Origin: a virus
Lineage: Duplodnaviria; Caudoviricetes
Direction: 5' to 3' (one strand)
Length of the DNA: 57,019 bases
IMG/VR virus record: IMGVR_UViG_3300048839_000591
Location: 1-57,019 of that record
The notes beneath the pieces were generated by a model. The model was not told the origin of the DNA. It saw nothing but the letters and a program-made list of their open reading frames with translations, and searched no databases. The position numbers and the translations under genes were made by a program. Positions 6,709 through 37,288 of the stretch are shown in pieces. Every line of letters starts with the position of its first letter. The first letter of the stretch is position 1.

Positions 6709-7001
6709 TCAGTTTCGCCTCGATACGCAGCAATCGCTTCTTGAACACGATCTTCGCCACTATCGGCAGAATCCCACCACTCAACGGCATGCCAGATGTT
6801 TCGTAACCGTTCCTGACGTGTTTCAATACGGACCTTGGCTTGACGGATAATCAGGAGCACTTCTTCCGTTTCACGGGCAGCATCTTCGGCATAGCCAAGC
6901 CCAGCTAGGCGCTCAGCCATTTGCTCGATTTCGGCCTCCATAGTGAAGAGGCCCATATCGCAGTCTTTGGCGAACAAATAGTTGTAACTTCCCCCGCTCA
7001 C
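6705..7001 (-). CDS. Hypothetical phage protein (MSGGSYNY family)
   Basis: Coupled start/stop overlaps on both sides; AVEWWDS motif. Confidence 0.7.
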   Translation of the reverse strand: MSGGSYNYLFAKDCDMGLFTMEAEIEQMAERLAGLGYAEDAARETEEVLLIIRQAKVRIETRQERLRNIWHAVEWWDSADSGEDRVQEAIAAYRGETE

Positions 7002-8011: not shown

Positions 8012-8211
8012 TTGCTTCCACCTTGGGTCATGCCGCGAACCGACTCTGCGAGGAACGTGCGAGCGAGTTCGAATGCTTGTGCGTTAGAGAATCCCTGACT
8101 AAGCGCTTGTTGCCGAACCAAGGCAAGCACGCCAATGAAGTTAGCGATGGCTTCTGTCTGCTGGTCACTATTCGCGATACCAAACAGATTCTTCAATTCG
8201 TCGTCTTTCAC
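8008..8211 (-). CDS. Small hypothetical protein
   Basis: 4-nt overlaps with both neighbours. Confidence 0.6.
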   Translation of the reverse strand: MKDDELKNLFGIANSDQQTEAIANFIGVLALVRQQALSQGFSNAQAFELARTFLAESVRGMTQGGSK

Positions 8212-9011
8212 GTCGCCACCCTCTCGATAATCTCCCGGTCTGCCAGCCAGTGGTCGTATTTGTCGATGTTTGCGACCAAGTACGCCGGATGCTGCTCACC
8301 GAACGGCTCATAGACGTAGACGTTATCCGGGTTGCCGCTCGGGTCTTGCCCCGTCCTAATGCACTCGGCGAGATGCGCTTCGTTGGTAATGGCTGGGGTG
8401 TCACACTCGGCATGGCTGAACGATTTGAGCTTGTTGCGGAGACTAGCGACGCCGCCGAAACTTGAGTACGACCAGCCGCCGTCCTGGAAGCACCATTCCC
8501 CCTTCATAACCGATAGCGTGTTACGAAGTGACTGCGGCAAATCAAGGTCGGCATACCGAATCGCTCGCGTGCCAAACCAAGGCCGCGTGTGTCGCCAGTT
8601 GAGGGTCATGCTGTACAACGCCTGCTCATACGCCACACGTTCAAAGTCCGCAAGCAGGAACGGCAGGTGCTTTATCGTTTCAGGATTCGGAATCTCGTCA
8701 ACGTCGCTCACCAGAATCACGTCATCCGGCTCGCAGCCATGCAGCCCGCGCATAATCGCGTTGCGCTGGAAGTGCTCCCGATGCCAGGGGTTATCGGTTG
8801 CTGGCAGGTCACGCACAGCCACATAGTTAATCCGATGGATGAAGGCAGCGAAGCGTTCACAGTTCTCGGAAAAGTAGAGTGGCTTGGGATTGCCCCTGAA
8901 CGTCTCCGTTGCTTCGACGAGTACGAACTGGTCCACCACGTCACCGAGCACGTTCAGCCGCAGTTCGAGCATGTCGAGTTCGGAATCGAACAAAAACGCA
9001 TCGACAATCAC
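8208..9011 (-). CDS. GT17-family glycosyltransferase (MGAT3-like)
   Basis: ELDMLELRL, VLVEA..TF.G.PKP, REHFQRN, SDVDEIP, GGW..S.FGG and KL.SFSH motifs. Confidence 0.88.
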   Translation of the reverse strand: MIVDAFLFDSELDMLELRLNVLGDVVDQFVLVEATETFRGNPKPLYFSENCERFAAFIHRINYVAVRDLPATDNPWHREHFQRNAIMRGLHGCEPDDVILVSDVDEIPNPETIKHLPFLLADFERVAYEQALYSMTLNWRHTRPWFGTRAIRYADLDLPQSLRNTLSVMKGEWCFQDGGWSYSSFGGVASLRNKLKSFSHAECDTPAITNEAHLAECIRTGQDPSGNPDNVYVYEPFGEQHPAYLVANIDKYDHWLADREIIERVAT

Positions 9012-9328
9012 GGCGTTGGCTCCATCAGGTAGGCCACGAGGTCAGGATTGCGCTGTAGGGTGTCCAAGAGCACCGGACCAAGAACCGTCACAAGTTGTTC
9101 TTCACGATTCGCCGGAAGTGGCCTCCCACAGATGTCGATCAATGTGTGCAACACCTCATGAATCAAGACTTCCGCTTGGCGGGATGGAGCACAGTCAGAG
9201 TGAATCGTGATGACATGCTTCTTGTAATTGACATCGCCATAAAACTCGTTCTCATCAAGCCGAACGTTGTCATTCGTCTGAATCTCATAACGAAATGGTC
9301 CAACGGTTACTTGCGTCGGTATTATCAC
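9008..9328 (-). CDS. Small ImmA/IrrE-like HExxH metalloprotein
   Basis: EVLIHEVLH motif with a downstream EE. Confidence 0.7.
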   Translation of the reverse strand: MIIPTQVTVGPFRYEIQTNDNVRLDENEFYGDVNYKKHVITIHSDCAPSRQAEVLIHEVLHTLIDICGRPLPANREEQLVTVLGPVLLDTLQRNPDLVAYLMEPTP

Positions 9329-9876
9329 GGCGCCCGCCATTCCCAAATCGAATCCGCCACCACCGTCGCGTTCGGCAGCACGTCAGACAGCGCTTCCTTG
9401 ACCTGACCAACGCCCCAATCATGGCCGCACATCAGACCACCGGACGCCACTAACGGCAGCCAGTTCGTCACGTCATCACAGACGCTCTGGTAATCGTGGC
9501 TACCATCAATAAAAACAAGGTCGAACGTGCACTCCCGCTCGCGATACCGCTTGGCTGCGTCCAGGCTGGTCATGTTGAGATGCACGCATTTCCCCTTGAC
9601 CAATTCCGGCATCAGGTGCTGCGTAAACAGCTTCTGTAGGTATTCGGGCCTGAGCGGCTGGTCTTGCTCACCACGCCAATCGTCGATGGCGTAGACAATG
9701 CCCGGCGTGGCCATGGCTAATGCTTTGGTACTGCGACCGGCGAAACTGCCCACTTCTACGATGCTGTGATGGTGCTGGGCTTGCTCTGCGAGGTAGCGCA
9801 GCTCGGTCAACGACATCCAGCCAACGATGCGTGCGGCCTGGTCGACAATGGTGTCGATGCTCAAGGTGGTGGTCAT
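9325..9876 (-). CDS. Class I SAM-dependent methyltransferase (Methyltransf_24-like, candidate O-methyltransferase)
   Basis: VEVGSFAGRS, FIDGSHDY and GG...GHD motifs. Confidence 0.85.
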   Translation of the reverse strand: MTTTLSIDTIVDQAARIVGWMSLTELRYLAEQAQHHHSIVEVGSFAGRSTKALAMATPGIVYAIDDWRGEQDQPLRPEYLQKLFTQHLMPELVKGKCVHLNMTSLDAAKRYRERECTFDLVFIDGSHDYQSVCDDVTNWLPLVASGGLMCGHDWGVGQVKEALSDVLPNATVVADSIWEWRAP

Positions 9877-11966
9877 GCCGTCTCCTCTAGCGTCAACTGC
9901 TGCGTCTGCTTGGCCGCTTCACGCTCCCAGTGAGCAATCCGATGGCGGGCAATGGTGACGTACTCCGCTTCGGCATCTATCCCGATGAAGCGGAAGCCCT
10001 GTCGAGCCGCACTACAGCCGGTCGAGCCACTGCCAGCAAAGCAATCGAGCACCAGCCCACCTGGCGGGGTCACTAAGCGCACCAACCAATCACAGAGAGA
10101 GAGCGATTTAACTGTCGGGTGAGAATTGGTCATGCCGTCGGGTAAGCCAAGGTTCCGTTCGCGCCTGCTCGCCTTCGCCTGATAGATTAGGGGCGCGTCG
10201 ATGTCCGGGTGGAACTGGGGGAAGAAGCGGGCAGCCGACCCCGTATCTGGTTGCCGTTCTACGTGAATGCGCCGCTCCAGTTCATTGCCTCGTAAGCCAA
10301 CGTGACGGCCTTTGCCATCCTGCCCAGTGCCGCCACTCTTGCGCTCCCCCGACTGCTCCCCAAGCACCCGGACAGGGCATGACTCGTGGCATCGCCAGGC
10401 GGTCACATGCTCGCCGGCGGTGTAGGACTCAGCGAGGCCGTCTTGGCCCGCATGGCCGTTCGTGCTCAGTCCACCTTTGCCGCGCTTGGCCGGATAATGG
10501 CCGTTGCCCTTGACCCGCGTGGTGCCGAGCGGGACGCAGTGCTCGGTGTGTTGCAGCAAAAGATTACTTGGCCATCTCCCGGTACTTAGAGTGTGGCTTT
10601 GACGGGTCAATGAGGTGAAGTCGTGCGTGATCGCCCCGCCGCATGAGCTGCAAGTTTTCGAGCCGGTTGTCCTGTTTGTCGCCGTTGATATGGTGGAGGA
10701 CGTGTCCGTCAGGGACGGGTCCATGGGCGTCTTCCCATACTCGTCGGTGCTCAAGTTGGTTTTTCCGAATTGGCTTGCGCTTAGTACCGCCTGGCTCGGT
10801 CCACTGGAGCATCCAATAGCCGTTTTGGAGGTATCGGAAAGGCCGTTCTCGTCCGCGCCGTTCATCGTCAGCTCGGCATTGCTTGGAACAGTAGATGCCT
10901 TTGTTGCTGGTGTTGCGGGTCTCTGATTCTTTGCCACAGCCTCGGCACACGAAGCGCAAAGGGATAGCTCTAGTTCCCATGATTGTTCATTCCTTACTCG
11001 CGTGGCTCCGATATTCACTGCTCCAACTGACCAACGGGCGATGTTGTCCACCATGCGCCCCTGTGGCGGCTTCTGTGCCATACAAACGGGTTCAAGGCTT
11101 GGCTTAAGCGACTGACGCCCGTAGAACCAGCCGTCCCAGGCTTTCGCGGCGTCGGTGGCGGGTGCGGTGATGTCGTAGTGTCCTTCAGTATTCGCGCCGA
11201 ATCCCCATTGAGTTGCGAACTCTGGTTTGTTGCTCGGCGTTCGCCATTTGCTATCTAAGACCTCGCGCTCGGCTTCGTCGTAGAGCCGTTCAAAGTCAGG
11301 CGACAAATCCAGTAATGAGCGGACCTGATCCCAATGCTGGCGCGGTGGCATCCCGCCTCGATGATCGGTGCGTGCCCAGTAGCACGACGACGACTTGATA
11401 CCGAGCACGCGATCAATATCGCTATGGCTGTACATTGAAGACTTGACCGCCTGCGCATACGCACGGGAAAAGGACTGCCAGGCCACCGGGTTACCCCCGG
11501 CCTTGTCCAGTTGCTTAGACAAATTAGTAGCCTTCGGGAACCCACTTCCGTAACACCACCCAATGAGCGGATGCAGGATGAACCCCGCGTCCTCGATGGC
11601 AACCGCCATGCGGTGATACGTCCGGCTGCCTCCGAATGCCAGCAGATAGCCCCCTGGCTTCAAGACGCGATAGACGGCCTGCCAGGTTTCGACGTTGAAC
11701 GCGACGCCGGTTGCGTCCCATTGCTTGCCCATAAAACCTTTGCCGTGGCTGCGTTGGTTGTAGAGTTCGCCGCCGCACTTCGGGCAGGCATTCGGGTTGC
11801 CGTCACGTCCACCGAGCACCCGGCCACAATCGCGGCACTTCTTGACATCGGGTACACGGTTGGTCAGGTCATATGGCGGGTCACAGACCACGGCGTCGAT
11901 GCTGTTCGGCTCCATGCCGCGCATCACGTCCAGCGCGTCGCCGTGGATGACCTGCCAGTCGCTCAC
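9873..11966 (-). CDS. Beta-class N4-C/N6-A DNA methyltransferase with large insertions
   Basis: DPPY precedes HPTVK and DCFAGSGSTG; GRWPSN; GTG start overlaps the GT4 stop. Confidence 0.88.
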   Translation of the reverse strand: MSDWQVIHGDALDVMRGMEPNSIDAVVCDPPYDLTNRVPDVKKCRDCGRVLGGRDGNPNACPKCGGELYNQRSHGKGFMGKQWDATGVAFNVETWQAVYRVLKPGGYLLAFGGSRTYHRMAVAIEDAGFILHPLIGWCYGSGFPKATNLSKQLDKAGGNPVAWQSFSRAYAQAVKSSMYSHSDIDRVLGIKSSSCYWARTDHRGGMPPRQHWDQVRSLLDLSPDFERLYDEAEREVLDSKWRTPSNKPEFATQWGFGANTEGHYDITAPATDAAKAWDGWFYGRQSLKPSLEPVCMAQKPPQGRMVDNIARWSVGAVNIGATRVRNEQSWELELSLCASCAEAVAKNQRPATPATKASTVPSNAELTMNGADENGLSDTSKTAIGCSSGPSQAVLSASQFGKTNLSTDEYGKTPMDPSLTDTSSTISTATNRTTGSKTCSSCGGAITHDFTSLTRQSHTLSTGRWPSNLLLQHTEHCVPLGTTRVKGNGHYPAKRGKGGLSTNGHAGQDGLAESYTAGEHVTAWRCHESCPVRVLGEQSGERKSGGTGQDGKGRHVGLRGNELERRIHVERQPDTGSAARFFPQFHPDIDAPLIYQAKASRRERNLGLPDGMTNSHPTVKSLSLCDWLVRLVTPPGGLVLDCFAGSGSTGCSAARQGFRFIGIDAEAEYVTIARHRIAHWEREAAKQTQQLTLEETA
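10564..10980 (-). CDS. HNH endonuclease nested in an alternate frame of the DNA methyltransferase
   Basis: CRGC..YCSKQC zinc finger, EHRRVW, HHINGDKQDNRLENL and H motifs; upstream AAGGA. Confidence 0.85.
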   Translation of the reverse strand: MGTRAIPLRFVCRGCGKESETRNTSNKGIYCSKQCRADDERRGRERPFRYLQNGYWMLQWTEPGGTKRKPIRKNQLEHRRVWEDAHGPVPDGHVLHHINGDKQDNRLENLQLMRRGDHARLHLIDPSKPHSKYREMAK

Positions 11967-13152
11967 GCCGCACGCTCCGTGGCATCCCCGAATATGCGCT
12001 CTTGAATGCTCGCCAGTACAGGCCGCCAATAGACATCAGTCACCAGGTCGGCATCGTATTCGAGCGCCCCTTGTCGGGCAGCCTGACGCATCAGCGCGGG
12101 ATTCGTGACCGCGTAGGCCGCTTCCAGTTGCTCGTAGATGGCCTCTGGCCTCGGGATGAACTGAAACGTATTCAGCCCGTTCCACCACGGTATCGTGTCG
12201 GTCTTGTCCACCTTCCAACCGCTGAAGCACAACTCGCTCATGGCCGTCCAGTCACCAACCAGCACCGGGCAGCCAGCGGCTTGCGCCTCCAGGATGCCGA
12301 TACCAAACCCTTCACCTTTGGCCACGTTCATGTAGAGGTCCGCCGCGTTATAGACCGCATTCATGTAGACATCACTGAAGCCAATCAGCATCGTGTACTG
12401 GTCGGCAAAGACGACATCGGGACCGATGCGTAAGCCCAGATGCTCGCAGAGGGCCAGCAGGTTCTCGCCGCCGAGTTCACCGCGTGCGCCGGTCGTGGTG
12501 TGCAAATAGAGCAGCGCGTCCGGGTGTTTGGTCTTCAGCATCTTGAAGGCAATGAGCTGTTCCACGAAGGCTTTACGGCTCGGGTTGCCCTTGTTGGCGG
12601 CGACCATGGCGACGATGTAGGCATCTTTCGGCAGGTTCAGTGCTTCACGGGCTGAGGCGCGGTCAGCCGGGTGAAAGACGGTCGTGTCGGTGCCATGGGG
12701 AACGTACATCGTTTCGATGCCCGCCTCGTGACACACCCGTTCACCGAAGCGACTGAACACAATCGGCTGGAATGACTGGTTGACCACCTGAGCAATGCCT
12801 TGAGGTAACGGCTCAGAATCGACCGGGAACCAAGGCACGTGGCGCACGCCATGGCCGTAGAACTGCGGCTGGCAGACCCAGGCGTCCATCAGCGTCAACG
12901 CGATGTGCGCCCCTTGGTGAGCAGCGTGGGCCGTGACCACATCTTGACTGTATGCCTGATGCCCGGACGGATAGACCTTGATGCCGTGCCACTCGATGAC
13001 GGCGCTATTCAGCCCCCAGAACGCGCTAATGGCAATCGGGTAACCGAGCAAATCCTTGATGCGTGGCACGAAGAGCTTGGTCTGATTCGCATAGCCGGTG
13101 TTCAATTAGTCCATGGCGCGTTGGAAAACCAACTAATCGTCATAGACTGCAT
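11963..13152 (-). CDS. GT4 (GT-B) glycosyltransferase; first 16 codons (13152-13105) separated from the body by TGA and a frame change
   Basis: WFSNAPW / TGYANQT N-terminal motif; VPHG.D, RK and GEGFGIGILEAQAAG motifs. Confidence 0.85.
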
Positions 13153-18900: not shown

Positions 18901-20519
18901 TCGTCAGCCTCCTCGCCACGGTTGAAGCGGTCTATCATCGCATCGGCCACCGTCGGCGGGTTCTCGCGTTGCTCCCGTTCGGCCTCGCTACGCATCTGGT
19001 CAATCTCCATCTCGTTCAAGCCCGCCTCGCGCCACAGTTGCTCATTCGAGTAGCCATATTGTTTCTTGAGCACCGCGCCCTGTGCTCGCGTGTACTCGGT
19101 TTGGGCGCGTTCGCTGGCACTGGTGGCAATCACGTCCCGCCGCTCGAAATGATGCTCGAAGTCACCCGCTTCAAACGTGCCGATGCGTTCGGACTCAAAG
19201 CCGGGGATACCGTTGACCTGGGCTAAGGTCAAGGCCATCTGCGTGACTTGCACCACAGCGGAGTCAGCGTTGCCACGGGCCTCAATCACGCGGTCAATGG
19301 CCGCCGTCAACAGGTAACGCAGCGCCACGCCGGAATCAGCCGATGCGCGGTGAATCTGGTAGTAGCGGAGTTCTGGAAGGTCGTAGTCTTCCAGATGCTC
19401 CATGCCATCCTTCAAGATAGCGAGGTGTTCGGCGTAATGCAGGTCGGGAACCATCGGCTCCATCGAACTCATACCGGGCATGAAGTACATCTCGTCATCG
19501 CCAACGGTAATCGTGCTATTGGCCTCCCCCATACGCGGGGCCGGCATCGGGCGATTGGCCGCGTCCAGCATGTTCGCGGCAACAACCCAGGTAACCTTAT
19601 TGTTGCGAAAGATTTGTTGATGCAATCTGGTAGCTGAGCGGTTGATCTCATCAATCTTGTCGATACAGGGCATAATCAACGCCTCGCCCCGCTCATCACC
19701 GATACTGCGAAAGATGCCGTGCGAGAACGGGACAAAGTCGATGCCCATCTGTTCAAGATATTGCTCATCGACTGGCGTACCCAAGCGATCGAGATTGTCT
19801 TCCTCATAGCGGAACCGCTCTGTTGGTGTCTCCCACAACCGAAAGAGCCCGCTGTCTTTGTCCCACACTTCTGTATGGACATAGGCGACTTTCTTGCCGT
19901 CCGACTGCCGTCGCGTTTTCGGAATATCGAGCCGGATATAGGTCATGAAACCACGCTCGTCTTTGTCGAAATCCGAGACGTGCATCGGGTCGATCATGTT
20001 GATGTAGGAGCGAATCACCTCGTCAGAATTGCGTCGTTTGCGAGTGGCCGCTTGCAGGAACTGGTCACCATAGCGCGGCATGTTGCGCGCCATCTCTTGC
20101 TTGTTCTGCTGCCAGTTCGACCACTGGTATATCTTGTCAATGGCCGGAATCAGCTTGTCATTATCGCTATCAAGCGGGGCATCAGCACCGGGTCGCGGGT
20201 CATGGACAATCTCGAAGACCTCTTCGAGCGAACCAGCCCATAGGGTCGCCGGATAGAACTCAACCGCCGCATGCGTCGGGTTCCTGAGCGGCTTCATTGG
20301 CTCTTTCCAGATACCACTCTCTTTGAGCAGCAAGGCCAGGTTCTCGTACAAATCAACCGAGCGGTAGTAGCGATCGAGCATGGCATAGCGCTGCCGGTGT
20401 GAGAGACCACTGGTCAACGCTTCCATGCCCGGTCGCTGAGCATACAGGCTATTCGGAGCGGCAAAGGTGTTCATCGCGCCGTACATGGCACTTTCGACAC
20501 GGTTAAGCGGCCACACCAT
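18897..20519 (-). CDS. Portal protein
   Basis: 540 aa directly after TerL; YGD, SGVAL motifs of SPP1 gp6-like portals. Confidence 0.85.
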   Translation of the reverse strand: MVWPLNRVESAMYGAMNTFAAPNSLYAQRPGMEALTSGLSHRQRYAMLDRYYRSVDLYENLALLLKESGIWKEPMKPLRNPTHAAVEFYPATLWAGSLEEVFEIVHDPRPGADAPLDSDNDKLIPAIDKIYQWSNWQQNKQEMARNMPRYGDQFLQAATRKRRNSDEVIRSYINMIDPMHVSDFDKDERGFMTYIRLDIPKTRRQSDGKKVAYVHTEVWDKDSGLFRLWETPTERFRYEEDNLDRLGTPVDEQYLEQMGIDFVPFSHGIFRSIGDERGEALIMPCIDKIDEINRSATRLHQQIFRNNKVTWVVAANMLDAANRPMPAPRMGEANSTITVGDDEMYFMPGMSSMEPMVPDLHYAEHLAILKDGMEHLEDYDLPELRYYQIHRASADSGVALRYLLTAAIDRVIEARGNADSAVVQVTQMALTLAQVNGIPGFESERIGTFEAGDFEHHFERRDVIATSASERAQTEYTRAQGAVLKKQYGYSNEQLWREAGLNEMEIDQMRSEAEREQRENPPTVADAMIDRFNRGEEADE

Positions 20520-21882
20520 GGTTCGTTCCTCTCGCGTGCCAACCGGCGCTCAGATAATGCTCCAGGTAGATGATGAGCTGGGCGAAGGCGTCGCCTTGGT
20601 CGTCATGCTCGGTATCCGGCAACGCAAACAGCTCACGTTCAAAGTCGTGCAACCAGGGCGCGAGCGGCGACGGCTGGGGCAGCCAGACCATGCCGAGCTT
20701 GCACCAGACGGCGGCTTGCTGGAAGCGTTGGCGTTTCTGCCCTTTGGGCTGGAAGGGAATCAAGAGCGGGCGCATCCAGTCAGGACCGGCATTGAGCAAG
20801 GTCTGATAGGCCGATGTGCCCGCTACCGTGTCTTCGATGATGATGCCGGAAAGCTTGCCGTCGCGGTTGTAACGCAAGGCCGTGTCTTTGATGCGGTCAA
20901 CGAGGTCAGGAAAGATGAGCTTTTCACGCCAGACCTCACGCAGCCCTAAGGCATAGTCGTCAAACAAATCCCCCACGGCACAGGCTGAGTAGTCGGACGA
21001 GTCCTTGTCCTTCATGGCCGTATCGAACGACAGGTAGCGTCCCACGGTCAGTTTCTGCAAACGTTCATCGTCCAGGTGGAAGCGATTTCGTTCACGCCAC
21101 CAGATGCGGTGGAACGCCCGCGTCGTCGGGTCGGTGACCCACAAGCCTTTGAGCAATTGGTCACGGGTAATCGGGTCCAGCTCGGACAGTGACAGCACGT
21201 ACTCGTCATGGTCGAGGTGTGGGTTGTCGTTCAGGTTGGCGGGCACGAACTGCCGATCAAGCGAACGCAGGGCTAAGAACCGCTCATACACCCACTCATG
21301 GCCTTCACCGCCAGGATTGGACGCAGCTCGCATGCGCAATGGCACAGTCGAGCCTTCAAGCCGGCGTAGACGAGAAAAGAGGTAGGTGTACATGGGCTCT
21401 GCGAACTGCGTTAATTCGTCATACCCTACGAACTGGAATTCTGAACCCTGATACCGATATTTCGTCTTCTCATATTCGAGATAGCCAAAGGTGAGCGTCG
21501 CGCCACTCGGGAAGGTCCAAGTCTTGGTCTTCTCATCCCACCGGGCATCAGTCCCAGCCAACCACTCATAGGCACGGTCCATCAGCGCACCAGGTAGTGC
21601 CAGGTCAGCGTAGGTGCGCCGTAAGAGCAACGCCGCATACCCAGGGACATCGACGTACTGAAGAGCTGCCATCAAAAGGGCTTCACTCTTGCCCCCACCA
21701 GCGCTCCCCCCAAATAACGCCTCACGCATAGGCAGGCTCAAGAACACGGCCTGCTTGGCCGTCGGCATGTGGGGAATGTAGTTATTCGTGAAGACCGTCC
21801 GTGTCAGCAGTTCCAGGCTCTGTTCCACCAGATCCGAAGATTGCCTGGAAGTTGGCACGGTAGGTGTCAACGTCGAAATCAT
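20503..21882 (-). CDS. terL: Terminase large subunit
   Basis: Walker A GGSAGGGKS, Walker B VGYDE, ASNP, SFDTA and HDDQGDA. Confidence 0.93.
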   Translation of the reverse strand: MISTLTPTVPTSRQSSDLVEQSLELLTRTVFTNNYIPHMPTAKQAVFLSLPMREALFGGSAGGGKSEALLMAALQYVDVPGYAALLLRRTYADLALPGALMDRAYEWLAGTDARWDEKTKTWTFPSGATLTFGYLEYEKTKYRYQGSEFQFVGYDELTQFAEPMYTYLFSRLRRLEGSTVPLRMRAASNPGGEGHEWVYERFLALRSLDRQFVPANLNDNPHLDHDEYVLSLSELDPITRDQLLKGLWVTDPTTRAFHRIWWRERNRFHLDDERLQKLTVGRYLSFDTAMKDKDSSDYSACAVGDLFDDYALGLREVWREKLIFPDLVDRIKDTALRYNRDGKLSGIIIEDTVAGTSAYQTLLNAGPDWMRPLLIPFQPKGQKRQRFQQAAVWCKLGMVWLPQPSPLAPWLHDFERELFALPDTEHDDQGDAFAQLIIYLEHYLSAGWHARGTNHGVAA

Positions 21883-25376: not shown

Positions 25377-25753
25377 GCCGCTCTTCCTTCCACCAGCCGC
25401 ATCACAGCCCGTATCGCATCCTTGACCGCATCCGGCGTCCGCTCATCACGCCACACCATCACCACACGCAGCAGCTCAGTATCGTCGCCAATCGAGAGCC
25501 CCAGCGGGTCAAGTGGCGGGTAGCCAGCGGCCAGCAGCAGCCGGTCCCGTTCCTGGCTGGTGAGTCCCAGCGCATGGGCCAGTTGCAGCACCCGTTCGAC
25601 TCTCGGCCTCTTGCGGCCGTGCTCGTACTTGCTGATTTCGCCGTGGTCCTCGCGGTAGCCGGTGGTCCGTTCGGCAACGTCGAGCTGCGACAGGCCGCGT
25701 TCGGTACGCAGCAGCCGTAGGTGCGCGCCGAAGGTGTGGGGTTGGGCGCTCAT
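25373..25753 (-). CDS. XRE-family HTH regulator
   Basis: FGAHLR.LR..RGLSQ.DVA, ISKYEHG..RP, LL.AAGY. Confidence 0.85.
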   Translation of the reverse strand: MSAQPHTFGAHLRLLRTERGLSQLDVAERTTGYREDHGEISKYEHGRKRPRVERVLQLAHALGLTSQERDRLLLAAGYPPLDPLGLSIGDDTELLRVVMVWRDERTPDAVKDAIRAVMRLVEGRAA

Positions 25754-26241
25754 GCCACGGCCTCCCAGAGTGTCTTTTGTCCGGTCGGATGCTGGTCAAT
25801 CCGTGGTCGTGAGGGACAATCCCAAGTCCCGCCAGCCGTCTGATAGAGCGCTTTCCAGCCCGCAGCTACCAGGCTGATTCCCGGCTCTTCGGCCAAGGTG
25901 TAGGTCACGAGCCGCCGATAGCCAAGCGCTTTGGTTGCACGCCAGGCGGAGCCATAGAGCATCGACGCGGCGTTCTTCGTCCCGTCAGTACAGCAGCGGG
26001 TTACTTCGAGCGTCCAGCCGTTATCGAGTCCACGCGCCACCGGACGCCCAACCGTCACGACACCGACGATGCGGTCACCATCGTTGACCGCAATCCCGAA
26101 TTTCCAACCGACGGGTGGCAGGTGATGGCGGTGATGCTGCCGGATGAACGCACACGCTTCGGCGTAGGTGATGGGCTGCAAGTGCAAGCTCACAGTTCCC
26201 GCTCCCCGCGTCGTGGCCGTGCCCGCGTTCGTGCCGGTCAT
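25750..26241 (-). CDS. XF1762-family / Mom-like GNAT protein (candidate DNA modification)
   Basis: AFI..HHRH, VGRPVAR.LD, LEVTRCCTDG..NA.SMLY, GYRRLVTYTL. Confidence 0.8.
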   Translation of the reverse strand: MTGTNAGTATTRGAGTVSLHLQPITYAEACAFIRQHHRHHLPPVGWKFGIAVNDGDRIVGVVTVGRPVARGLDNGWTLEVTRCCTDGTKNAASMLYGSAWRATKALGYRRLVTYTLAEEPGISLVAAGWKALYQTAGGTWDCPSRPRIDQHPTGQKTLWEAVA

Positions 26242-26256: not shown

Positions 26257-27123
26257 TCAATCGTCGTAGTCCGGTAACGGTCGATATGCAGCCTCGTCTT
26301 GCCCTCGGTGGACGCCATTCGGTGATGCTCGGCTCGGAGCGCACATCGCCACCATGAGCTGGTCGAATTTCTCGCGAAACTTGCCCATGCTCAGGATGTT
26401 CTTCAGCCAAAACGGGTCATGCTGCGACCACGAAATCACGGCCCGAATGTCGTCAAGCTCGCGCTCATCACGTTCTCGCATCAAGCGAACGTCGTTGGCC
26501 CAAGCCTGTAATTGCCGCTCAGTCGCCTTTTTCGCCTTGGGATTGTTCTCACGAATCAGCCGTTGCAGGAACAACGCCGTCTGGTATTCGTCCGAATCGA
26601 CCGAAAAGACCTCAGAAACCGTCCGCGTCGCGCTAGCGGCGTCGGACTTCGGACTTTCTTTCTCGTTTTCGGGAGTTAAACGGGGTACGGGTAGGGGTAC
26701 GGGGGGGTCGTTAGTAACGTTCGGAGTAACACCGTTACTAGCTGTGTTACGTGACTCGTTACTCGCTTCATTGATAACAGTGTTTGTCTTGTTCCGTTCT
26801 CGCCATTCCGCCTGCCGCCGTGCGTTCTCGGCTCGCTGTTGCTTCACGTCCTCAGAACTGGGGTTGTATTCCAGGTAGTCGTTGATCTGGTAGCCGCTTG
26901 ACATTTGGATCCACAGGCCACACCGAACCAATTCAGCGGCAACACTCATCTCCACGTCCACCATTGCCGCTGACAATCGCAACGCAGCCGGTGATACGTA
27001 GCCATCAGTCAGATTCGCCGCCGCGTAGGTAAGACACGCCATGTAAAGAAGCTTGGCGTCCTTGGTTCGATCAAGCACTTTGGGATGGGTGAAGAACTGA
27101 TCGTCAAGCTTGACCCACGCCAT
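26257..27123 (-). CDS. Replication initiator / replisome organiser
   Basis: WVKLDD.F..HPK, INDY.EYN, W...DPFW..NILS..KFR.KFD motifs. Confidence 0.8.
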   Translation of the reverse strand: MAWVKLDDQFFTHPKVLDRTKDAKLLYMACLTYAAANLTDGYVSPAALRLSAAMVDVEMSVAAELVRCGLWIQMSSGYQINDYLEYNPSSEDVKQQRAENARRQAEWRERNKTNTVINEASNESRNTASNGVTPNVTNDPPVPLPVPRLTPENEKESPKSDAASATRTVSEVFSVDSDEYQTALFLQRLIRENNPKAKKATERQLQAWANDVRLMRERDERELDDIRAVISWSQHDPFWLKNILSMGKFREKFDQLMVAMCAPSRASPNGVHRGQDEAAYRPLPDYDD

Positions 27124-27124
27124 T

Positions 27125-28486
27125 TCAGGAGCGCTCCATTCTGCCTGCGCCGAATCGTTCGGAGAAGTGGGCCGTCTCGGGATTCCAGGTTAATTCCACG
27201 TCGCCAATCGGCCCGTTTCGATGTTTCGCGACGATCAGTTCGGCGTTGAATTCCGGCTGGCTGCTGTCATAGAGAAACGGACGATGCAAGAACATCACGA
27301 CATCGGCGTCTTGTTCGATGGTCCCTGAATCCCGTAGGTCTGAGAGGCGCGGTCTGGCATCGCTGCCACGGGTCTCGATCGCGCGATTCAGTTGCGCCAA
27401 TGCCAGCACCGGCACGTTCAGATGCCGCGCCAATCCCTTGAGCGCTCGGCTCACTTTGCCGATGTCCTGGGTTCGGTTCTCGCGGCTGTTGGGTACGTCG
27501 ATCAAGTGCATGTGGTCGATCACAAGCAGGTCAAAGGGCTTGCGCCCGTACATCTCGATACAGCGCGCCAGGATGTCTTTCAGCGAACTGGATGACCGAT
27601 CATCAACGTAGAGGCTCATGCGACCCAGTTCGCCAAAGGCGTCGGCTACTCGGCTCGCAGCTTTCCCGTCGTCATCATCCTGCTTACCGGCATGCCGTCG
27701 TTGTAGGTGCCGGTGCATGTTGACGTTCGCCAGTTGCGCCACCCAACGGGTGCGTAATTCGTCGCGGCTCATCTCAAGTGAGACGATGGCAACCGCTTTA
27801 CCCGTCTTGGCAATGCCGAGTGAGATCTGCGATTGCAGCGCCGTTTTGCCGACCGATGGACGGGCAGCTAGGACAATCAACTGGCCAGGCAGAAACCCGC
27901 CGAACTTCCGATCAAGTGGCCCAAACTGCGTCCGAATTGGCTGCACAACCGGCGCGTCAAGCGCGTCATAGGCAGCGGACAGATCGTCGCGCATATCAAC
28001 GAAGCCGGTCGATGTGGACGCGCTTCGGATGCGCGACATCCGTTCTTCAATGCGCGCTTCGAGTTCAGCCGGGTCGGTAATCGTGGCGGCATCAATGAGG
28101 TTCTGCTTGGTCGCCTCAGTCAACTGGCGATGAATCGACGCCTTCTTGACTTCCTCGGCATAGTCGATGGCATAGATCGCGGTCGGGACGACATGCTGCA
28201 ACTCTTGGAGCAACTTCAACAGCGGTCCCAGTTCATCCGGCGCGCAGCCTAACTGACTCTGCACCGTCACGTAGTCGGGGTTTATTCGCTTCTCGTAGCA
28301 GGCGACGATCGCACGGTAGATCTGCTGATAATCCGGGTCGGAGAAATCGTCTGGTTGCAGAATCGGCACAACCGAGAGGATCACGTCGCGGTCGATCATC
28401 ATCGACCCGAGAACGGCGGTTTCAGCAGCCAGATTGATGAGGGGGGAATTAATCTCAGAGGCTGGGGGAATGGTAGAATCGTACAT
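27125..28486 (-). CDS. dnaB: Replicative DNA helicase
   Basis: AARPSVGKT, SLEM, AQLNR, SDLRDSG.IEQDAD, AKHRNGP. Confidence 0.95.
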   Translation of the reverse strand: MYDSTIPPASEINSPLINLAAETAVLGSMMIDRDVILSVVPILQPDDFSDPDYQQIYRAIVACYEKRINPDYVTVQSQLGCAPDELGPLLKLLQELQHVVPTAIYAIDYAEEVKKASIHRQLTEATKQNLIDAATITDPAELEARIEERMSRIRSASTSTGFVDMRDDLSAAYDALDAPVVQPIRTQFGPLDRKFGGFLPGQLIVLAARPSVGKTALQSQISLGIAKTGKAVAIVSLEMSRDELRTRWVAQLANVNMHRHLQRRHAGKQDDDDGKAASRVADAFGELGRMSLYVDDRSSSSLKDILARCIEMYGRKPFDLLVIDHMHLIDVPNSRENRTQDIGKVSRALKGLARHLNVPVLALAQLNRAIETRGSDARPRLSDLRDSGTIEQDADVVMFLHRPFLYDSSQPEFNAELIVAKHRNGPIGDVELTWNPETAHFSERFGAGRMERS

Positions 28487-28675
28487 CAGTCGTTGCTCCT
28501 ACTCACACTAGGGCGACGGTCAGCGGCCGGGTTGGTGTTGCAAGCACCGCTCGGTCGCGTTCTATTTCCCCCGATTGTATCACAAAACAGCATAAAACGC
28601 CTCATTCGTACGCATCATCGAACCACCGCGAACACCTTGGCACGCGGCGGCTTGAGCGGCTTGTCCTCTGGGAAT

Positions 28676-29152
28676 TCAGGAATCTTGGTGAGGGCAGCGA
28701 CCATAGGCACCGATCGCTGCGTTGCAGTTCCAACACAGCACGCGATACCCATCAGGCCAACCCAGCTTGCGAAGTCGGCGGTATTGTTGAGAGCCGCCCT
28801 TGTGTCCCTCTGCGAGACGTGCGGCGTTACCGCCTCCATTGATGTGGTCAAGAGTGAGGAATTCGACGGTCGATTCTCCACAACAAGCACATGTCGGAGG
28901 ATCACCGCCATACGCGATAAGCGCCGCCAACCGCAAGCGCTCCCGCTCACTTCTTCGGTGATCGTAATACTGCTTGTTGTAATCGGGGTGTTTCGCTCGC
29001 CATTCACGAGCGTACGCGGCTCGATAGGCACGAGCTTCAGGAGAGTCGCTATCCCATTTCGCTTTACCGCTAGGACGCGGCCCTGGTTTGCGACAGACAT
29101 GACTTCCGTCTGTCCGCATGAATTGCTTGCAAATGGGACACCGTTCAGGCAT
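28676..29152 (-). CDS. HNH endonuclease
   Basis: YGG..CACCGE, LTLDHING, VLCWNCN. Confidence 0.88.
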   Translation of the reverse strand: MPERCPICKQFMRTDGSHVCRKPGPRPSGKAKWDSDSPEARAYRAAYAREWRAKHPDYNKQYYDHRRSERERLRLAALIAYGGDPPTCACCGESTVEFLTLDHINGGGNAARLAEGHKGGSQQYRRLRKLGWPDGYRVLCWNCNAAIGAYGRCPHQDS

Positions 29153-29189
29153 GAGGCTTGGCTCCGCATAATGGAACTACCCTTACACA

Positions 29190-30134
29190 TTATCTTACCA
29201 CAGCAAACACTCTAGCTCTAGGCGGTTTCAGGGGTTTTGATGGATCACCCTTGACGTAGGGCGCGATCCACTTAGGTTGGTGAACTTGTCGTGAGCGATA
29301 CCACTGCTGACGCCAATGACCAGATACGACCCATTGGCAGGAGTACTCGCGATTCTCTACCGGCTGTGATCCATGTTTCGGGTGTGCTGTTCTTCGAAGC
29401 CGGATAACGCGCACTAACGGCACGTCGTCGATCATTCGTGCCGCTCGACGACGGGTCGGACGATCCGCCACCTTACGATCGGTCGCTAAGACCGTCTGCG
29501 AAATCAGCGCCCATGACGCAGCGAAATAGCGGAGCTTCATGGTCAGACGATTCAACTTATCAGGCGGGTCTGCGTTTGCTGCGCGGGCAGCAATGAACTC
29601 AAGGTCTTCGCCGCAATGCCAAGGAATATGCGTGACGGGTATGCCAGATGGATTAAGTCGCTCATCCGCTACATAGAACGTCACATAGAACGTCGAAGGG
29701 TACAGGCTCTCAGGTTCAGTGTTATCCATCAGCACGAAGTGCGATTCTTTCGGCGCAGGATCAACCACGATATTTCTGATACGAATCCAGCTCAACGCGG
29801 TTAGTGGTGCTATCCAGTCATCTCGCCACGGCTCAAGATTGAGTGGCCGTTCAAACCAAAGGAAGCCGTTGTCAGTCGGCATCTGATCAAACGTCAGCGT
29901 CCAGTTGGGCATGTTCTCTGCTGCTATCTCCAAGAACGAGCACATCTCAGATGACCAATAGAAGGGATCACCCAATAGAAGCGCCCGACGAGGAGCACCA
30001 AACATCATTTCTTTATTTGACTCAGATGCCGTAACGCGGCTAAGTTGTGCATTCCAGAGTGCCTGCCCACGTTCTGACTCCATGAAGTCAAGGATTTCCA
30101 CCTGTTTCGCAAGAGCGCGGGAGTACTCGTGCAT
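29190..30134 (-). CDS. Conserved phage hypothetical protein
   Basis: C-terminal WVVSGHWRQQWY..WIAPYVKG motif. Confidence 0.7.
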   Translation of the reverse strand: MHEYSRALAKQVEILDFMESERGQALWNAQLSRVTASESNKEMMFGAPRRALLLGDPFYWSSEMCSFLEIAAENMPNWTLTFDQMPTDNGFLWFERPLNLEPWRDDWIAPLTALSWIRIRNIVVDPAPKESHFVLMDNTEPESLYPSTFYVTFYVADERLNPSGIPVTHIPWHCGEDLEFIAARAANADPPDKLNRLTMKLRYFAASWALISQTVLATDRKVADRPTRRRAARMIDDVPLVRVIRLRRTAHPKHGSQPVENREYSCQWVVSGHWRQQWYRSRQVHQPKWIAPYVKGDPSKPLKPPRARVFAVVR

Positions 30135-30402
30135 CTACATCATCCGTTCGTCATTCGTATGCCGGTACGTACAGGGGCGAGCGACCCCGCCCCCGCGTGT
30201 GCCTATGCCTGCCCCCAGCGCCGCTCCCAGCGCTCCCAGAGAATCGCCACCTGCGACGATGCCGCGGCCTGGACGTTTGACGGCGCGCCCTCTTGTCGAT
30301 AGCCAATCAACCGTCCATAGGCCCGGCAGACGGCCTCGGCATCACGCAAGCGGTTCGGCAGTACGGCCTCGTCAAGCAGCACGTCGACGGTGATGCGTTC
30401 GT

Positions 30403-31335
30403 TCATTCGACGGCCTCCCCAGCCTTGGCCAGTTCTTGGTCCGCAACCCAACGGTAGAGCTTCCGTCCTTGGGTTTTTGTGATGAAGGCGACCGGCGCCT
30501 TGAACAGCTCGCGTGCCTGGTTGTCCAGCGCTTCACGGTCGATGCCGAGCGACGCGGCATAGTTCACCAGCGTCGTGACCTGGTCGTCAGTCAAGACATC
30601 GAGCTTGGCAGCCGGCGTAGCGGGTTCCTCTTCAGGTTGGTCCTCGTCGACCGCCTTCCCCTCGACCTCAATCACCCGGCCTTCGATGTAGACGCTCGCC
30701 TGTTCCTTGGTGAGTTCCTTGGATGACTCCACGCCGAACTGCGCGCCTAACACCTCATGCCGCGCCTCATCCCCCACGCCAGCCGCTTTATCGAGTGTGT
30801 GAATCGCCTTGATTTGCTCGTAGGACAGCGACTCTTCCAGGCCCGGAATCGGAATCGGGAAGGCCGCACGCAGCGCACGATGGAGCGCACGCTTCTGGGC
30901 CATCGTCACCGCGTCGTTCTTCGAGAGCGGGTTGCGGTCCTGTGGGCCATTGGCCCGGCCATAGGCGACGATCGGGAAGCGCCGGTCCTTGCGATAGACC
31001 GCGCATTTCCAGATGACTTCCTCCTTAGCAGGCTTGAGCGATTCGAGTTCCCACGGCTCAATACCGAGCCACTGGAAACCGTCATAGGCCGGGTGGCGGT
31101 CGGCAATGCGAATACGCCCGTCGATGGTCACATATGGGTTGCCCTGGTACGGAATCAGCTCCCCTAAGAACGGGTCGAGTTCGTAGGCCAAGGCGATGCG
31201 GGCAATCTCCATCGCACCCGCTTTGTTCACGTCCTTCGGCCACTTGGCCAAGAGCTTCTGGCTCAGGTGCTCGGTCTCCTTCTGAAGGTCAACGGGCTTC
31301 TGTTCGATGCGTGCAATCGCACGTTCTTCGCTCAT
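30403..31335 (-). CDS. RecT/Bet-like single-strand annealing protein
   Basis: LDPF, IDG...IA, C.VYRKDR, M..KRA..RALR.AFP. Confidence 0.78.
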   Translation of the reverse strand: MSEERAIARIEQKPVDLQKETEHLSQKLLAKWPKDVNKAGAMEIARIALAYELDPFLGELIPYQGNPYVTIDGRIRIADRHPAYDGFQWLGIEPWELESLKPAKEEVIWKCAVYRKDRRFPIVAYGRANGPQDRNPLSKNDAVTMAQKRALHRALRAAFPIPIPGLEESLSYEQIKAIHTLDKAAGVGDEARHEVLGAQFGVESSKELTKEQASVYIEGRVIEVEGKAVDEDQPEEEPATPAAKLDVLTDDQVTTLVNYAASLGIDREALDNQARELFKAPVAFITKTQGRKLYRWVADQELAKAGEAVE

Positions 31336-31781
31336 GTGTGTGCTCCCCAATTCGTCTGTTCTTGCTTCGGATTGACTTTGATGTACGGCGCGCTGGCCTT
31401 CGATTCCCAGGCTGCCTGCGCTTCGTCCTCAGTCAGTACGCCGCGTTTGACGAGCTTCTTGACCTCGCTCGTGGCAATCGAGAGCGTGCAGTGGTCAAGC
31501 ACCTCAGCACGTTTCGGCAGCCGGTCAGCGTTGTAGGCACCGCGGTTCTGACGAATCAGTAGCACCTCAACGTCGGCGTTCTCGGCATAGCTGATGTCCG
31601 GCTCCGCCATCGCCTCAGTGAGTTCGCGTTTGGCCAGTGAGAGTTGTTCAGCCAGCGCCTCACGTTTTTCGATCACTGGGAACCATTCCTCGACAAAGGC
31701 GGCGAGTTCCCGTTCACAGGCCAGGTAGGTCTCCATAGCGGCGTTGATGCGTTCGGTCGGTGTGATTGTTTCAGTGCTCAT
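31332..31781 (-). CDS. Hypothetical protein
   Basis: GGAGG RBS; ATGA overlap with the recombinase gene. Confidence 0.6.
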   Translation of the reverse strand: MSTETITPTERINAAMETYLACERELAAFVEEWFPVIEKREALAEQLSLAKRELTEAMAEPDISYAENADVEVLLIRQNRGAYNADRLPKRAEVLDHCTLSIATSEVKKLVKRGVLTEDEAQAAWESKASAPYIKVNPKQEQTNWGAHT

Positions 31782-34463: not shown

Positions 34464-34648
34464 GCGGCTACCGCCGTTTCAATCATGTCCTCGGCAAGCT
34501 CTTCAACATGCACCTTGAGGTACAGGTCGATACTGAGCCGGATCACTTCCGCCATGCTCTTGCCGCGCTTCTTGGCGAGCCGTTGCAATTGCTCATGCTG
34601 GATCGTCGTGATGCGTGTGCTCGTGAAATGTAGGTGATCGTCGTTCAT
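34460..34648 (-). CDS. Ribbon-helix-helix (CopG-like) Cro analogue
   Basis: TSTRI...L..LAKK.GKSMAEVIR..ID.YL; divergent from the repressor. Confidence 0.8.
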   Translation of the reverse strand: MNDDHLHFTSTRITTIQHEQLQRLAKKRGKSMAEVIRLSIDLYLKVHVEELAEDMIETAVAA

Positions 34649-34655
34649 GGTTCCT

Positions 34656-34740
34656 CCTATATCGGTACACCCATATTATCACTCCGATATCGGTACTGTC
34701 AATAGACATGTTCGGCGATATCGCTACACTGATATCGGTG
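34656..34740. promoter_or_regulatory. Divergent promoters and operator array
   Basis: Four CCGATATCGG-like palindromes near 34656, 34684, 34715 and 34729; leftward TTGACA-N16-GATAAT; rightward TAGACA-N16-TACACT. Confidence 0.75.
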
Positions 34741-34778
34741 TAGGTGATATGGAGTGCTGTGTGCGAGGAACAACGACA

Positions 34779-35405
34779 ATGGAAACAGTCGGTCAGATCG
34801 TGCGAGCATGGCGTAAAGAAAAGAAGATGACGCAAGAGCGCCTTGGCGAACTGATTGGCAAAGATCAGTCGTATATCTCTGAGGTCGAAACAGGGCAAAT
34901 CAAAGTGCCCGGCGACACCGTCCTCTTAGCCATCGCAAACGCGATGGAGATGTCGCCAGATCCATTGTTTGATGCTGGTGGGTATGAGATTCATCGAAGG
35001 GTGGTGGTGACTGATGAGTACCTAAGCGTGCCAGTGCAGGGCACCGTGCTGGCTGGTGGAAGTGACAAAGGGGCTCCAATGAACGAGATCCGCGTTACCC
35101 CGGAAAAGATTCAGGGTGCGCGCGATCCCTATGGACTTTATGTCTCTGGTGATGACCTGCGGGGATTTACCATTCTGTCTGGTGATGTGGTGATTGTCGA
35201 ACCGCTGTTTGACCGCAGGCCGAATGATCGCCAGCTCGTGGTGGTCAAAGACGGCAATGGACTCACCTTGCGACGATGGTGTCAGCGAGGGGACGCGGTT
35301 GAACTCGAAGACGCGGAGGGAAGGATCGTTCATCGTGTACAGGCAGGGGAAGACATTGAGGTGCAGGCACTATTCATAACATTTGAACCACTCGCACCAC
35401 GTTAG
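34779..35405 (+). CDS. Prophage repressor (XRE HTH plus degenerate S24/LexA-like domain)
   Basis: MTQERLGE...QSYISEVETG HTH; G.V.AG, V.GD.., GD.VIV. Confidence 0.88.
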   Translation: METVGQIVRAWRKEKKMTQERLGELIGKDQSYISEVETGQIKVPGDTVLLAIANAMEMSPDPLFDAGGYEIHRRVVVTDEYLSVPVQGTVLAGGSDKGAPMNEIRVTPEKIQGARDPYGLYVSGDDLRGFTILSGDVVIVEPLFDRRPNDRQLVVVKDGNGLTLRRWCQRGDAVELEDAEGRIVHRVQAGEDIEVQALFITFEPLAPR

Positions 35406-36151: not shown

Positions 36152-37288
36152 ATGGCAGAGCCGGGTATCTATAAGAAACAGGGGAAAACCGGCGTTAGCT
36201 ATCAGGCGATAGTGGACCTGGGCCGGGACCCAGCCACCGGCAAGCGACGTCAGAAGCGCAAGACCTTCAAGACGCGACGTGATGCCCTCGACTGGCGACG
36301 CAAGACGCTCACCGAGGTGCGGCAGCGCGTGTTCACCGAGCCGAGCCGGGAGCTGTTCAGTGTGGCGGCGGACCACTGGCTGGCAACGCGGGATGTGGAC
36401 GGCAGTACCGAACGGCTCTACCGCCGCGCGCTGACTGGGCACATCCTGCCCGTCTTTGGCGATACCGCGCTCTCCGACATTTCCCCGCGCATGGTCCAGG
36501 ATTTCTACAATGAGAAGCGCCACTACAAAGGCCGGCACGTCTACCGTGTGGTCCTCAATGGTGTGCTCCAATTGACCGTCGATGAGGGGCTGTTACTCCG
36601 AAACCCCGCCGCGCGTGCCAGCGGCATGACCCAGCCCAAGACCGAACGCGAGATCCAAGCCTGGGATGTTGAGACGTTGGCGCGCTTCCTGTCCTACACC
36701 GATGGTGACTATCTCTATCCCGTCTGGTGGGTACTGGCCCATACCGGCCTGCGCATCGGTGAGCTGGTCGCGCTCCGCTGGGAGGACATCGACCTCGATG
36801 CGCGGGTCATCCATGTGCGGCGCACCGAGACCGTCGATGCCGAGAGCCGGCGCATCATTGCCGACGCGGCCAAATCGGACCACTCACGACGGGATGTGAC
36901 CATCGACCCAGAGACGGCGCGTATCCTCGCACGCCAACGGATTCAGCAAGCCGAGCGACGACTGGCCCATGGCCGGGACTGGCAGGACACGCAGGCGGTG
37001 TTCGATCGCGGCAATGGCGACTACCTGACGACCGGCCAGGTTCGCGGCACCTTTGGCCGTCGTGTGGCCTCCGGCGGCTTCCCCGTATTGACACCCCATG
37101 GTTTGAGGCACAGCCACGCAACTGCGCTGATTATCGCGGGCCGTCCTATCCATTATGTCAGCAAGCGGCTAGGTCATGCCAACGTGAGCATCACGCTCAA
37201 TTTATATTCCCACGTGCTTCCAAATACCGAACACGAAGATGCCGAGGTGTTTGCTGAGATCATGCGCCGAGCCAGGCAGGCGGGCTAA
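36152..37288 (+). CDS. int: Tyrosine integrase
   Basis: GRDPATGKRRQ arm-binding domain; TGLRIGE, HGLRH, LGH and Y catalytic residues. Confidence 0.95.
   Translation: MAEPGIYKKQGKTGVSYQAIVDLGRDPATGKRRQKRKTFKTRRDALDWRRKTLTEVRQRVFTEPSRELFSVAADHWLATRDVDGSTERLYRRALTGHILPVFGDTALSDISPRMVQDFYNEKRHYKGRHVYRVVLNGVLQLTVDEGLLLRNPAARASGMTQPKTEREIQAWDVETLARFLSYTDGDYLYPVWWVLAHTGLRIGELVALRWEDIDLDARVIHVRRTETVDAESRRIIADAAKSDHSRRDVTIDPETARILARQRIQQAERRLAHGRDWQDTQAVFDRGNGDYLTTGQVRGTFGRRVASGGFPVLTPHGLRHSHATALIIAGRPIHYVSKRLGHANVSITLNLYSHVLPNTEHEDAEVFAEIMRRARQAG

Follow-up and report, generated by a model that had tools for sequence, protein, structure and literature searches.

An HNH endonuclease gene between a complete AcrVA2-like phage gene and the displaced tail of a second allele: a probable homing footprint

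Free-standing endonucleases in T4-type phages are a known case of intronless homing. What traces can such events leave behind? Work on phage 'HEG-islands' (HEG, homing endonuclease gene) drew attention to fragments of neighbouring genes lying beside HEGs, as possible recombination substrates (Barth, Dunham and Seed 2023, PMC10055350). In the yeasts Torulaspora and Lachancea, WHO elements home into FBA1 and supply it with a new 3' end; the old end persists beyond the nuclease gene and has been proposed to act as a homology arm when homing next occurs (Coughlan et al. 2020, PMC7282813). The mORFs of fungal mitochondria, described in atp6 of Allomyces and in atp6, atp9, cox2 and nad3 of Glomus, consist of an inserted foreign C-terminus followed by an endonuclease open reading frame (ORF) and then by the native C-terminus as a duplicate; the two copies have a low DNA identity (64-81%) and a high protein identity (Beaudet et al. 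2013, PMC3630166). This report concerns a locus in the virus record IMGVR_UViG_3300048839_000591, the 57,019 bases of which make up the whole stretch that was analysed (the window). On its minus strand, between recT and dnaB, a complete gene with an AcrVA2-like fold, here called X' as a member of family X, is followed by a free-standing HNH endonuclease gene and then by the orphan tail of a second X allele. The explanation favoured here, with reasonable rather than high confidence, is a homing footprint, in which the HNH gene and a whole foreign AcrVA2-like allele replaced the resident allele and left its last 18 codons behind.

Two tails around one HNH gene

The features of the locus, all on the minus strand, are the following.

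29190..30134 (-): gene X', an intact ORF of 314 amino acids and the target gene's working copy; ends ...PYVKGDPSKPLKPPRARVFAVVR and then TAA
29190..29246 (-): the own tail of X', DPSKPLKPPRARVFAVVR plus TAA, the 'replacement' 3' end; 5 of 18 codons with G or C at the third position (GC3)
29153..29189 (-): spacer of 37 bases from the X' stop to the HNH start, with GGAG 10-13 bases 5' of the ATG
28676..29152 (-): free-standing HNH gene (His-Me finger, endonuclease VII-like), an apparently intact ORF of 158 amino acids with stop TGA
28672..28675 (-): four bases from the HNH stop to the orphan, the right-hand junction
28615..28671 (-): orphan tail, 18 codons plus stop of a second, GC-rich X allele, with no body in front
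28615..29190 (-): alternative open frame of 191 amino acids, from the TAATG overlap through the HNH gene into the orphan

Along the strand, the full-length target gene thus comes first, the nuclease gene second and the target's displaced 3' fragment last. The coding part of the orphan (28671-28618) reads PEDKPLKPPRAKVFAVVR and is closed by a TGA at 28617-28615; at the right-hand junction the HNH frame and the orphan frame are offset by one base. How similar are the two tails? As proteins they are alike, sharing 14 of 18 residues, and as DNA they have diverged, with 31 of 54 coding bases identical (33 of 57 with the stops) and, as read from the two aligned strings, different codons at 11 of the 14 common residues. 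The third-position G/C count of the orphan, 14 of 18 codons, stands against the 5 of 18 in the X' tail. An earlier note on this DNA had pointed to these AT-rich codons at the end of X' and GC-rich ones in a displaced tail beyond the HNH gene, and to a working gene whose own tail differs at the base level. The codons and coordinates that it quoted are correct, both elements are seen, and the observation of an HNH gene beside a displaced gene tail is confirmed.

The orphan is also statistically real. A profile of 29 family members was searched against every stop-to-stop frame of at least 10 amino acids in the window; it returned X' itself at E 2.6e-102 and the orphan at E 1.3e-6 (24.3 bits, profile positions 277-294, which are the last 18), the next match lying at E 0.63. 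The orphan was recovered as well by a search of the window's own record, and its sequence is identical to the family consensus tail. With the same profile, in all frames, no further fragment of a second X copy was found in the window, and the repeat finder did not detect a DNA repeat linking the two tails.

Could X simply have been duplicated in tandem, the second copy decaying to its last 18 codons and the HNH gene inserting independently? The two tails do lie in direct orientation, 575 bases apart. However, nothing else of a second copy remains in the window, the tails are saturated at synonymous sites, as the 11 of 14 differing codons show, and they have opposite compositions with no DNA repeat between them, all of which makes a local duplication very improbable. 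An assembly chimera of two phage strains is no less improbable. In its favour, the window is derived from a metagenome, with an estimated completeness of 74%, and no sequencing run was listed for the region, but the tails share short identical runs only, which are not detected as a repeat, the junction between the HNH gene and the orphan lies outside any repeat, and the same HNH-tail junction occurs in independent HNH proteins from other samples.

Other candidate features of the locus were tried and rejected. An intron was considered, and the whole window gave no Rfam family over threshold. A near-repeat of 12 bases (28602-28613 and 30151-30162), a candidate for flanking direct repeats, belongs to a set of 14 such families, all at chance level, in 2.2 kb. 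Beyond the stops of X' and of the orphan, each of which overlaps an ATG, the next 9 bases agree at 7, which on a rough estimate would rarely happen by chance; this similarity is given no weight because stop-ATG overlaps are common in the X family. A scan for promoters and terminators gave nothing above the shuffled expectation.

What about the second frame of 191 codons? The earlier note had stressed that it stays open across the HNH gene, ends in the orphan and has the same offset to the HNH frame as a methyltransferase frame elsewhere in the window that contains another HNH gene. All of this is seen in the sequence; the meaning attached to it is not supported. When the HNH gene was resampled synonymously, the frame stayed open in 4.5% of trials with local codon usage and in 7.3% with phage codon usage, and in 24% when the gene's own synonymous codons were permuted. 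Its product has no Pfam or PHROG match. Because openness at P 0.045-0.24 is compatible with chance and the product matches no family, the frame is judged to be a chance open frame. A real overprinted gene that carries the conserved tail and is translated by coupling at the TAATG can appeal to the 191 open codons, to the start at a stop-start overlap and to the parallel with the methyltransferase frame. Against it, beside the chance-level openness and the missing family match, stands the reading in relatives, where the tail continues the frame of the HNH protein itself and not the alternative frame; such a gene is scarcely credible. The methyltransferase frame (9873-12029, minus strand, 718 amino acids) has its DNA methylase domain in two parts (Pfam N6_N4_Mtase, two stretches) and is open across a 138-amino-acid HNH gene (10564-10980, minus strand) nested within it in a different frame. 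Where the two overlap, the methyltransferase frame reads as Ser/Thr-rich filler, and neither an internal duplication of methylase sequence nor an Rfam intron was found at that locus.

The nuclease, its target family and the junction

The HNH protein belongs to phrog_2255, HNH endonuclease (E 7.3e-8), and retains all 23 invariant columns of a 21-sequence alignment, including the C..CC, DH and CxNCN motifs. Residues C88, C90, C91, D102, H103, C140, N142, C143, N144, C153 and H155 are invariant in 21 of 21 sequences, and the catalytic beta-beta-alpha-metal motif of an HNH or His-Me finger, with a DH...N...N core and flanking zinc-binding Cys pairs, can be recognised among them. Pfam is less explicit. 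Endonuclease_7 matches the protein weakly (E 0.84), eight of the 21 relatives reach E <=1 with a best value of 0.023, and the Pfam HNH signal is weak too. The structural model has a pLDDT of 83.3 and compares with T4 endonuclease VII at Z 2.5. The family is very large, with 24,710 representatives at E 0.001 or better. Tandem double-HNH proteins, 230-330 amino acids long, are numerous among the relatives (P0042, P0044 and much of P0098-P0243) and dominate the search of representatives.

Does this nuclease meet X anywhere else? All 297 HNH homologues were scored against the X-family profile, and five of them (P0040, P0039, P0058, P0273 and P0280) carry an in-frame X-type tail at the C-terminus and end at the tail's stop. 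Three tails are supported by the profile (P0058 at E 5e-4, P0273 at E 0.023, P0040 at E 0.047; the next best protein has E 1.2), with profile positions 277/278-294 aligned to the last 17-18 residues; those of P0039 and P0280 represent two other X subtypes and were assigned by eye. In all five the join lies 1-5 residues past the HNH CPH motif, at or beside the P of KGP in X. The five tails differ among themselves and the HNH proteins are 46-57% identical to P0040, a pattern that points to many independent homings or to a long shared history at one site. Since five relatives end in an X-type tail joined at the same point, this HNH clade is found repeatedly at this site. The insertion point that the earlier note had written as YVKG^PEDK is supported: the HNH gene of the window sits at the codon boundary between ...YVKG and PEDK, and the five relatives back it as a fixed point. 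The association is sporadic. An HNH homologue was found near X in none of 152 other X-family loci, a second tail in none of the 148 with a complete C-terminus, and a search of 1.84 billion representatives brought no further tail fusion, with 0 in 146 new proteins.

These data also bear on ordinary mosaic module exchange, in which the block of gene and HNH would have entered by illegitimate recombination, the nuclease being a passenger or having another role, such as packaging, with no homing into X. Free-standing HNH genes are as common as the family size given above indicates, most relatives are not beside X, and the low-GC block described below ends at gene boundaries. Yet a passenger would hardly be fused in frame, in five relatives, to X-type tails at one and the same junction. 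The orphan, moreover, begins 4 bases past the HNH stop and precisely at a codon boundary, within the stretch of the family that is conserved most. Module exchange without homing is, on this evidence, quite unlikely.

X' is a member of phrog_15934 (E 1.1e-23), a family of phages and plasmids without functional annotation, and has no Pfam match; its closest protein homologue is 41% identical. Relatives were collected from virus contigs (20 loci), metagenomes (309 confirmed, of which 80 were kept), genomes of Chloroflexi, Actinomycetota and others (52 loci) and actinobacterial plasmids (58). In a 29-sequence alignment X' retains all 18 invariant columns, five of them in the tail. The N-terminal two thirds of the family are variable and the last ~50 residues are nearly fixed, as ...CQWVVSGHWRQQWYPS... 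followed by PRWIxPYVKGPEDKPLKPPRAKVFAVVR. The AlphaFold model of X' has a pLDDT of 81.9, with low confidence for the last 13 residues, though these belong to the most conserved ones. Within the gene, 29671-29694 is a perfect tandem duplication of 12 bases, from which the protein has the repeated residues TFYVTFYV.

What could such a protein do? A single solved structure was matched by the model, that of the anti-CRISPR AcrVA2 (chain 7ci2_A; Foldseek E 4.7e-4, probability 0.98). The superposition has Z 9.8 and rmsd (root-mean-square deviation) 5.2 over 222 aligned residues, the next row being at Z 2.7, and spans model residues 9-297 against residues 2-316 of the chain, which is the full length. 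According to Marino and collaborators, the AcrVA2 family comprises ~1-kb genes on diverse mobile elements, FinQ included, with a divergent N-terminus and a conserved C-terminal HxR (H286, R288) that is required for activity, and AcrVA2/FinQ proteins lower the mRNA of a specific target via its nascent peptide (Marino et al., bioRxiv 10.1101/2022.11.29.518452). In X, H273-W274-R275 (the HxR of a GHWR motif) is invariant in 29 of 29 sequences, at a distance from the C-terminus similar to that of H286/R288 in AcrVA2. The profile of the 29 sequences searched against solved structures gave no match to the solved AcrVA2 chain at E <=10, only one unrelated weak match. The label AcrVA2-like is limited to fold and motif because this sequence-level match is missing, and membership of the family is not proven; phrog_15934 may be an unrecognised branch of the AcrVA2/FinQ family.

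Conservation around the junction was measured on 25 distinct HNH-free alleles with consensus-type tails, a base being called conserved when present in at least 70% of them. Of 93 bases around the junction 45 are conserved, and within the X family conservation is highest at the landing site. The orphan has no mismatch at the 29 conserved tail bases. X' likewise has none at the 16 conserved bases upstream of the junction, and downstream it has 8 mismatches at 29, six of them in the first 8 bases. The pattern hints at what a resistant allele of a junction-spanning site would look like. We consider it probable that the nuclease gene lands in the 3' end of AcrVA2/FinQ-like genes, which is highly conserved, and that it does so at the codon boundary that follows ...PYVKG.

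What moved in, and what was left

How much of the locus is foreign? The GC3 of X' is uniform over the thirds of the gene (56/100, 55/100 and 55/96, or 0.56, 0.55 and 0.57) and close to that of the HNH gene (83/158, 0.53), while the other genes average 0.709; the orphan, at 14/18, is typical of resident genes. Elsewhere only 3.4% of 116 hundred-codon windows have a GC3 <=0.56. Just upstream of the X' start, GC rises sharply from ~0.50-0.54 to 0.66. X genes elsewhere resemble their surroundings: in 80 related loci the mean difference in GC between X and its flanks is 0.000 (sd, standard deviation, 0.035) and -0.06 is reached by 2 of the 80, against -0.070 here. The proposal of the earlier note that recoding is limited to the 3' end is not borne out, as low GC3 spans the whole 314-codon X' and the HNH gene. 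Nor does X' look like a chimera of a native 5' part and a foreign 3' part: its body has low GC3 throughout and the break lies at the gene's 5' end. The DPSK-type tail of X' is also found in the HNH-free L024 and L104, which are the best-matching loci to X', and because HNH-free relatives have it, it is a natural allele and not a designed recoding. The earlier note had named empty alleles with the AT-rich tail as a finding that would speak against it; taken literally, L024 and L104 are such alleles. Since the composition is uniform and the DPSK tail goes with the best-matching loci, body and tail of X' probably have one origin and the incoming unit was probably the whole X' gene together with the HNH gene. 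The orphan, on balance, appears to be the last piece of a resident GC-rich allele.

A narrower unit has to be weighed at this point, in which the mobile piece is the recoded 19 codons, the spacer and the HNH gene, ~575 bases inserted between G and P, and the first 296 codons are the phage's own. This is the unit defined for the yeast WHO elements (PMC7282813), and departures from the conserved bases do begin exactly at the junction. The X' tail has a GC3 (5/18) even lower than the X' body (0.56; binomial P 0.015) and the HNH gene (P 0.028), which leaves it some room. On the other side, the X' body is as low in GC3 as the HNH gene in all thirds, unlike resident genes, X genes elsewhere match their flanks, the GC shift lies at the gene's 5' end and not at the junction, and the DPSK tail accompanies the best-matching loci L024 and L104, which fits a single origin. 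The narrower unit is unlikely.

If the homing footprint is accepted as the preferred reading, how might it have come about? The nuclease would cut an allele with the consensus junction, between KG and PEDKPLK..., and the HNH-bearing donor would template repair of the break. Donor DNA would thereby be copied in. In this case the copied stretch appears to take in the donor's complete gene, tail and stop codon included, and after a short spacer the HNH gene; the recipient's last 18 codons and the DNA downstream would remain behind the HNH gene, the codons as an untranslated orphan. X' would be immune because its junction codons differ, with DPS in place of PED, and the orphan, too, would lack a complete site, as it is without the left half. 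The orphan would probably serve as the right-hand homology arm for the next homing event. The anatomy, the statistical standing of the orphan, the break in composition and the recurrent link of this HNH clade with X-type tails at one junction are shown by the data. That the nuclease cuts, where it cuts, that X' resists it, which DNA was the donor, which way the transfer went and what the orphan may do are inferences.

Several points weigh against a homing footprint. The mismatch pattern of X' at the junction is not proof of resistance, because family members reach 10 mismatches, and the divergence of the DPSK tail need not reflect selection for resistance, because HNH-free relatives carry that tail. 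No close relative of the phage was found, with or without the HNH gene or with an empty site: blastn of 28300-30400 gave no DNA match in phage records, and tblastn of X' against phages gave 2 distant records. As no close relative was found, the empty site, the donor and the transfer direction have to be read from this one locus. The replacement tail upstream of the HNH gene is seen in this window only, and the HNH gene of the window does not read into the orphan, unlike those of the five tail-bearing relatives. The structural matches of the HNH model are mostly to HNH nucleases and weak, the best being the Gme HNH nuclease 4h9d_C (Z 4.3, rmsd 3.8, 65 aligned residues). Among the 80 best IMG/VR relatives of the HNH protein (58% identity or less) none is next to an X homologue, so only a small HNH subclade would have X as its target. 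The compositional argument rests on ~470 codons, and the S24 repressor of the phage has a GC3 of 0.514, the lowest among the measured genes; with a repressor equally low, low GC3 is not unique to the block of X' and HNH.

The phage itself looks like a temperate, tailed phage, and the record has an estimated completeness of 74%. Its landmarks and the neighbours of the locus are listed here.

3-2072: tail tape-measure-like protein
20503-21882: large terminase
26257-27123: replication initiator
27125..28486 (-): DnaB-type replicative helicase, resident downstream neighbour (Pfam DnaB_C, E 4.1e-77; GC3 0.694)
30203-30451: small ORF between recT and X' (GC3 0.711)
30403..31350 (-): RecT-family recombinase, resident upstream neighbour (Pfam RecT, E 7.8e-7; GC3 0.753)
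34647-35405 (+): S24 repressor (HTH-S24)
36152-37288: integrase

Elsewhere, a run of sugar-modifying genes (4982-13105, minus strand) encodes glycosyltransferases of families 2, 17 and 1, an RGP-like protein, an NAD-dependent epimerase/dehydratase and a class I methyltransferase, and adjoins the split DNA methylase gene. The Mom DNA-modification family is matched weakly by a 163-amino-acid protein (25750-26241, minus strand; Pfam Mom, E 9.9e-5, under the curated cut-off).

Meaning and comparison with known systems

What would follow if the reading is right? An HNH clade that is uncharacterised so far would have its homing site located by sequence alone, to a precision of a few bases and at the codon boundary between KG and PEDK, and the locus would be a phage case of 3'-end replacement with the old end left in place, by insertion into a coding sequence without intron or intein. 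Homing could then shuttle anti-defence alleles between phages, because the N-terminal part of AcrVA2-like proteins is thought to set specificity. A bolder version is tentative and rather unlikely. It makes the HNH clade a specialist of AcrVA2/FinQ-like anti-defence genes, whose ultra-conserved 3' end would be its universal landing pad, and has it drive the replacement of whole alleles between phages that are not related. The variable body that recognises the target would be exchanged at every homing, and the displaced tail would persist, both as homology arm for the following round and, in many relatives, as the C-terminus of the nuclease. For annotation, the 18-codon orphan and the overlapping 191-amino-acid frame should not be called genes, and HNH proteins ending in ...DKPLK...VFAVVR are best seen as fusions with a displaced fragment of the target gene. 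As for the earlier note as a whole, its homing-type HNH gene at a fixed junction and its displaced tail are retained, and its tail-only recoding and its use of the second frame find no support in the form given. A keyword search of the open-access literature found no description of an HNH element aimed at AcrVA2-like genes, from which absence is not claimed.

On the side of the target, X shares with AcrVA2/FinQ genes a length of ~1 kb, similarity in fold over the full length, an apparent counterpart of the C-terminal H-x-R, a variable N-terminal part and carriage by phages and plasmids; its invariant C-terminal tail, in contrast, is not met with in the available part of the AcrVA2 description. 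Phage free-standing homing endonucleases resemble the locus, as it is read here, in that the nuclease gene adjoins its target and flanking DNA is co-converted. They differ in residing at essential genes, mostly as intergenic insertions; here the landing point falls within a coding sequence, that of an accessory gene which is anti-defence-like, and HNH relatives read in frame into the displaced tail.

By its anatomy the locus matches the yeast WHO elements and the fungal mitochondrial mORFs, where the arrangement is already known. In the WHO elements, as at the X locus, the endonuclease gene comes immediately after a full-length target and is itself followed by the recipient's displaced 3' fragment, and no splicing is needed; the 3' end of the WHO target is donor-derived and resistant (PMC7282813), as that of X' would be. 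The differences are several: an intein-like WHO/HO nuclease instead of an HNH, a yeast nucleus with meiosis instead of a phage, a chimeric target with a native 5' part where X' looks foreign throughout, and a cluster of successive elements, of which there is none at the X locus. Allele-specific cleavage has been demonstrated for WHO (PMC7282813), while at the X locus it is a proposal. The mORFs, for their part, share with the X locus a foreign C-terminus, an endonuclease ORF and a duplicate of the native C-terminus, with DNA diverged and proteins alike. Their nucleases are of the LAGLIDADG or GIY-YIG type and their home is an organelle, and in them the C-terminal piece alone is foreign, as established against a close relative, of which X' has none.

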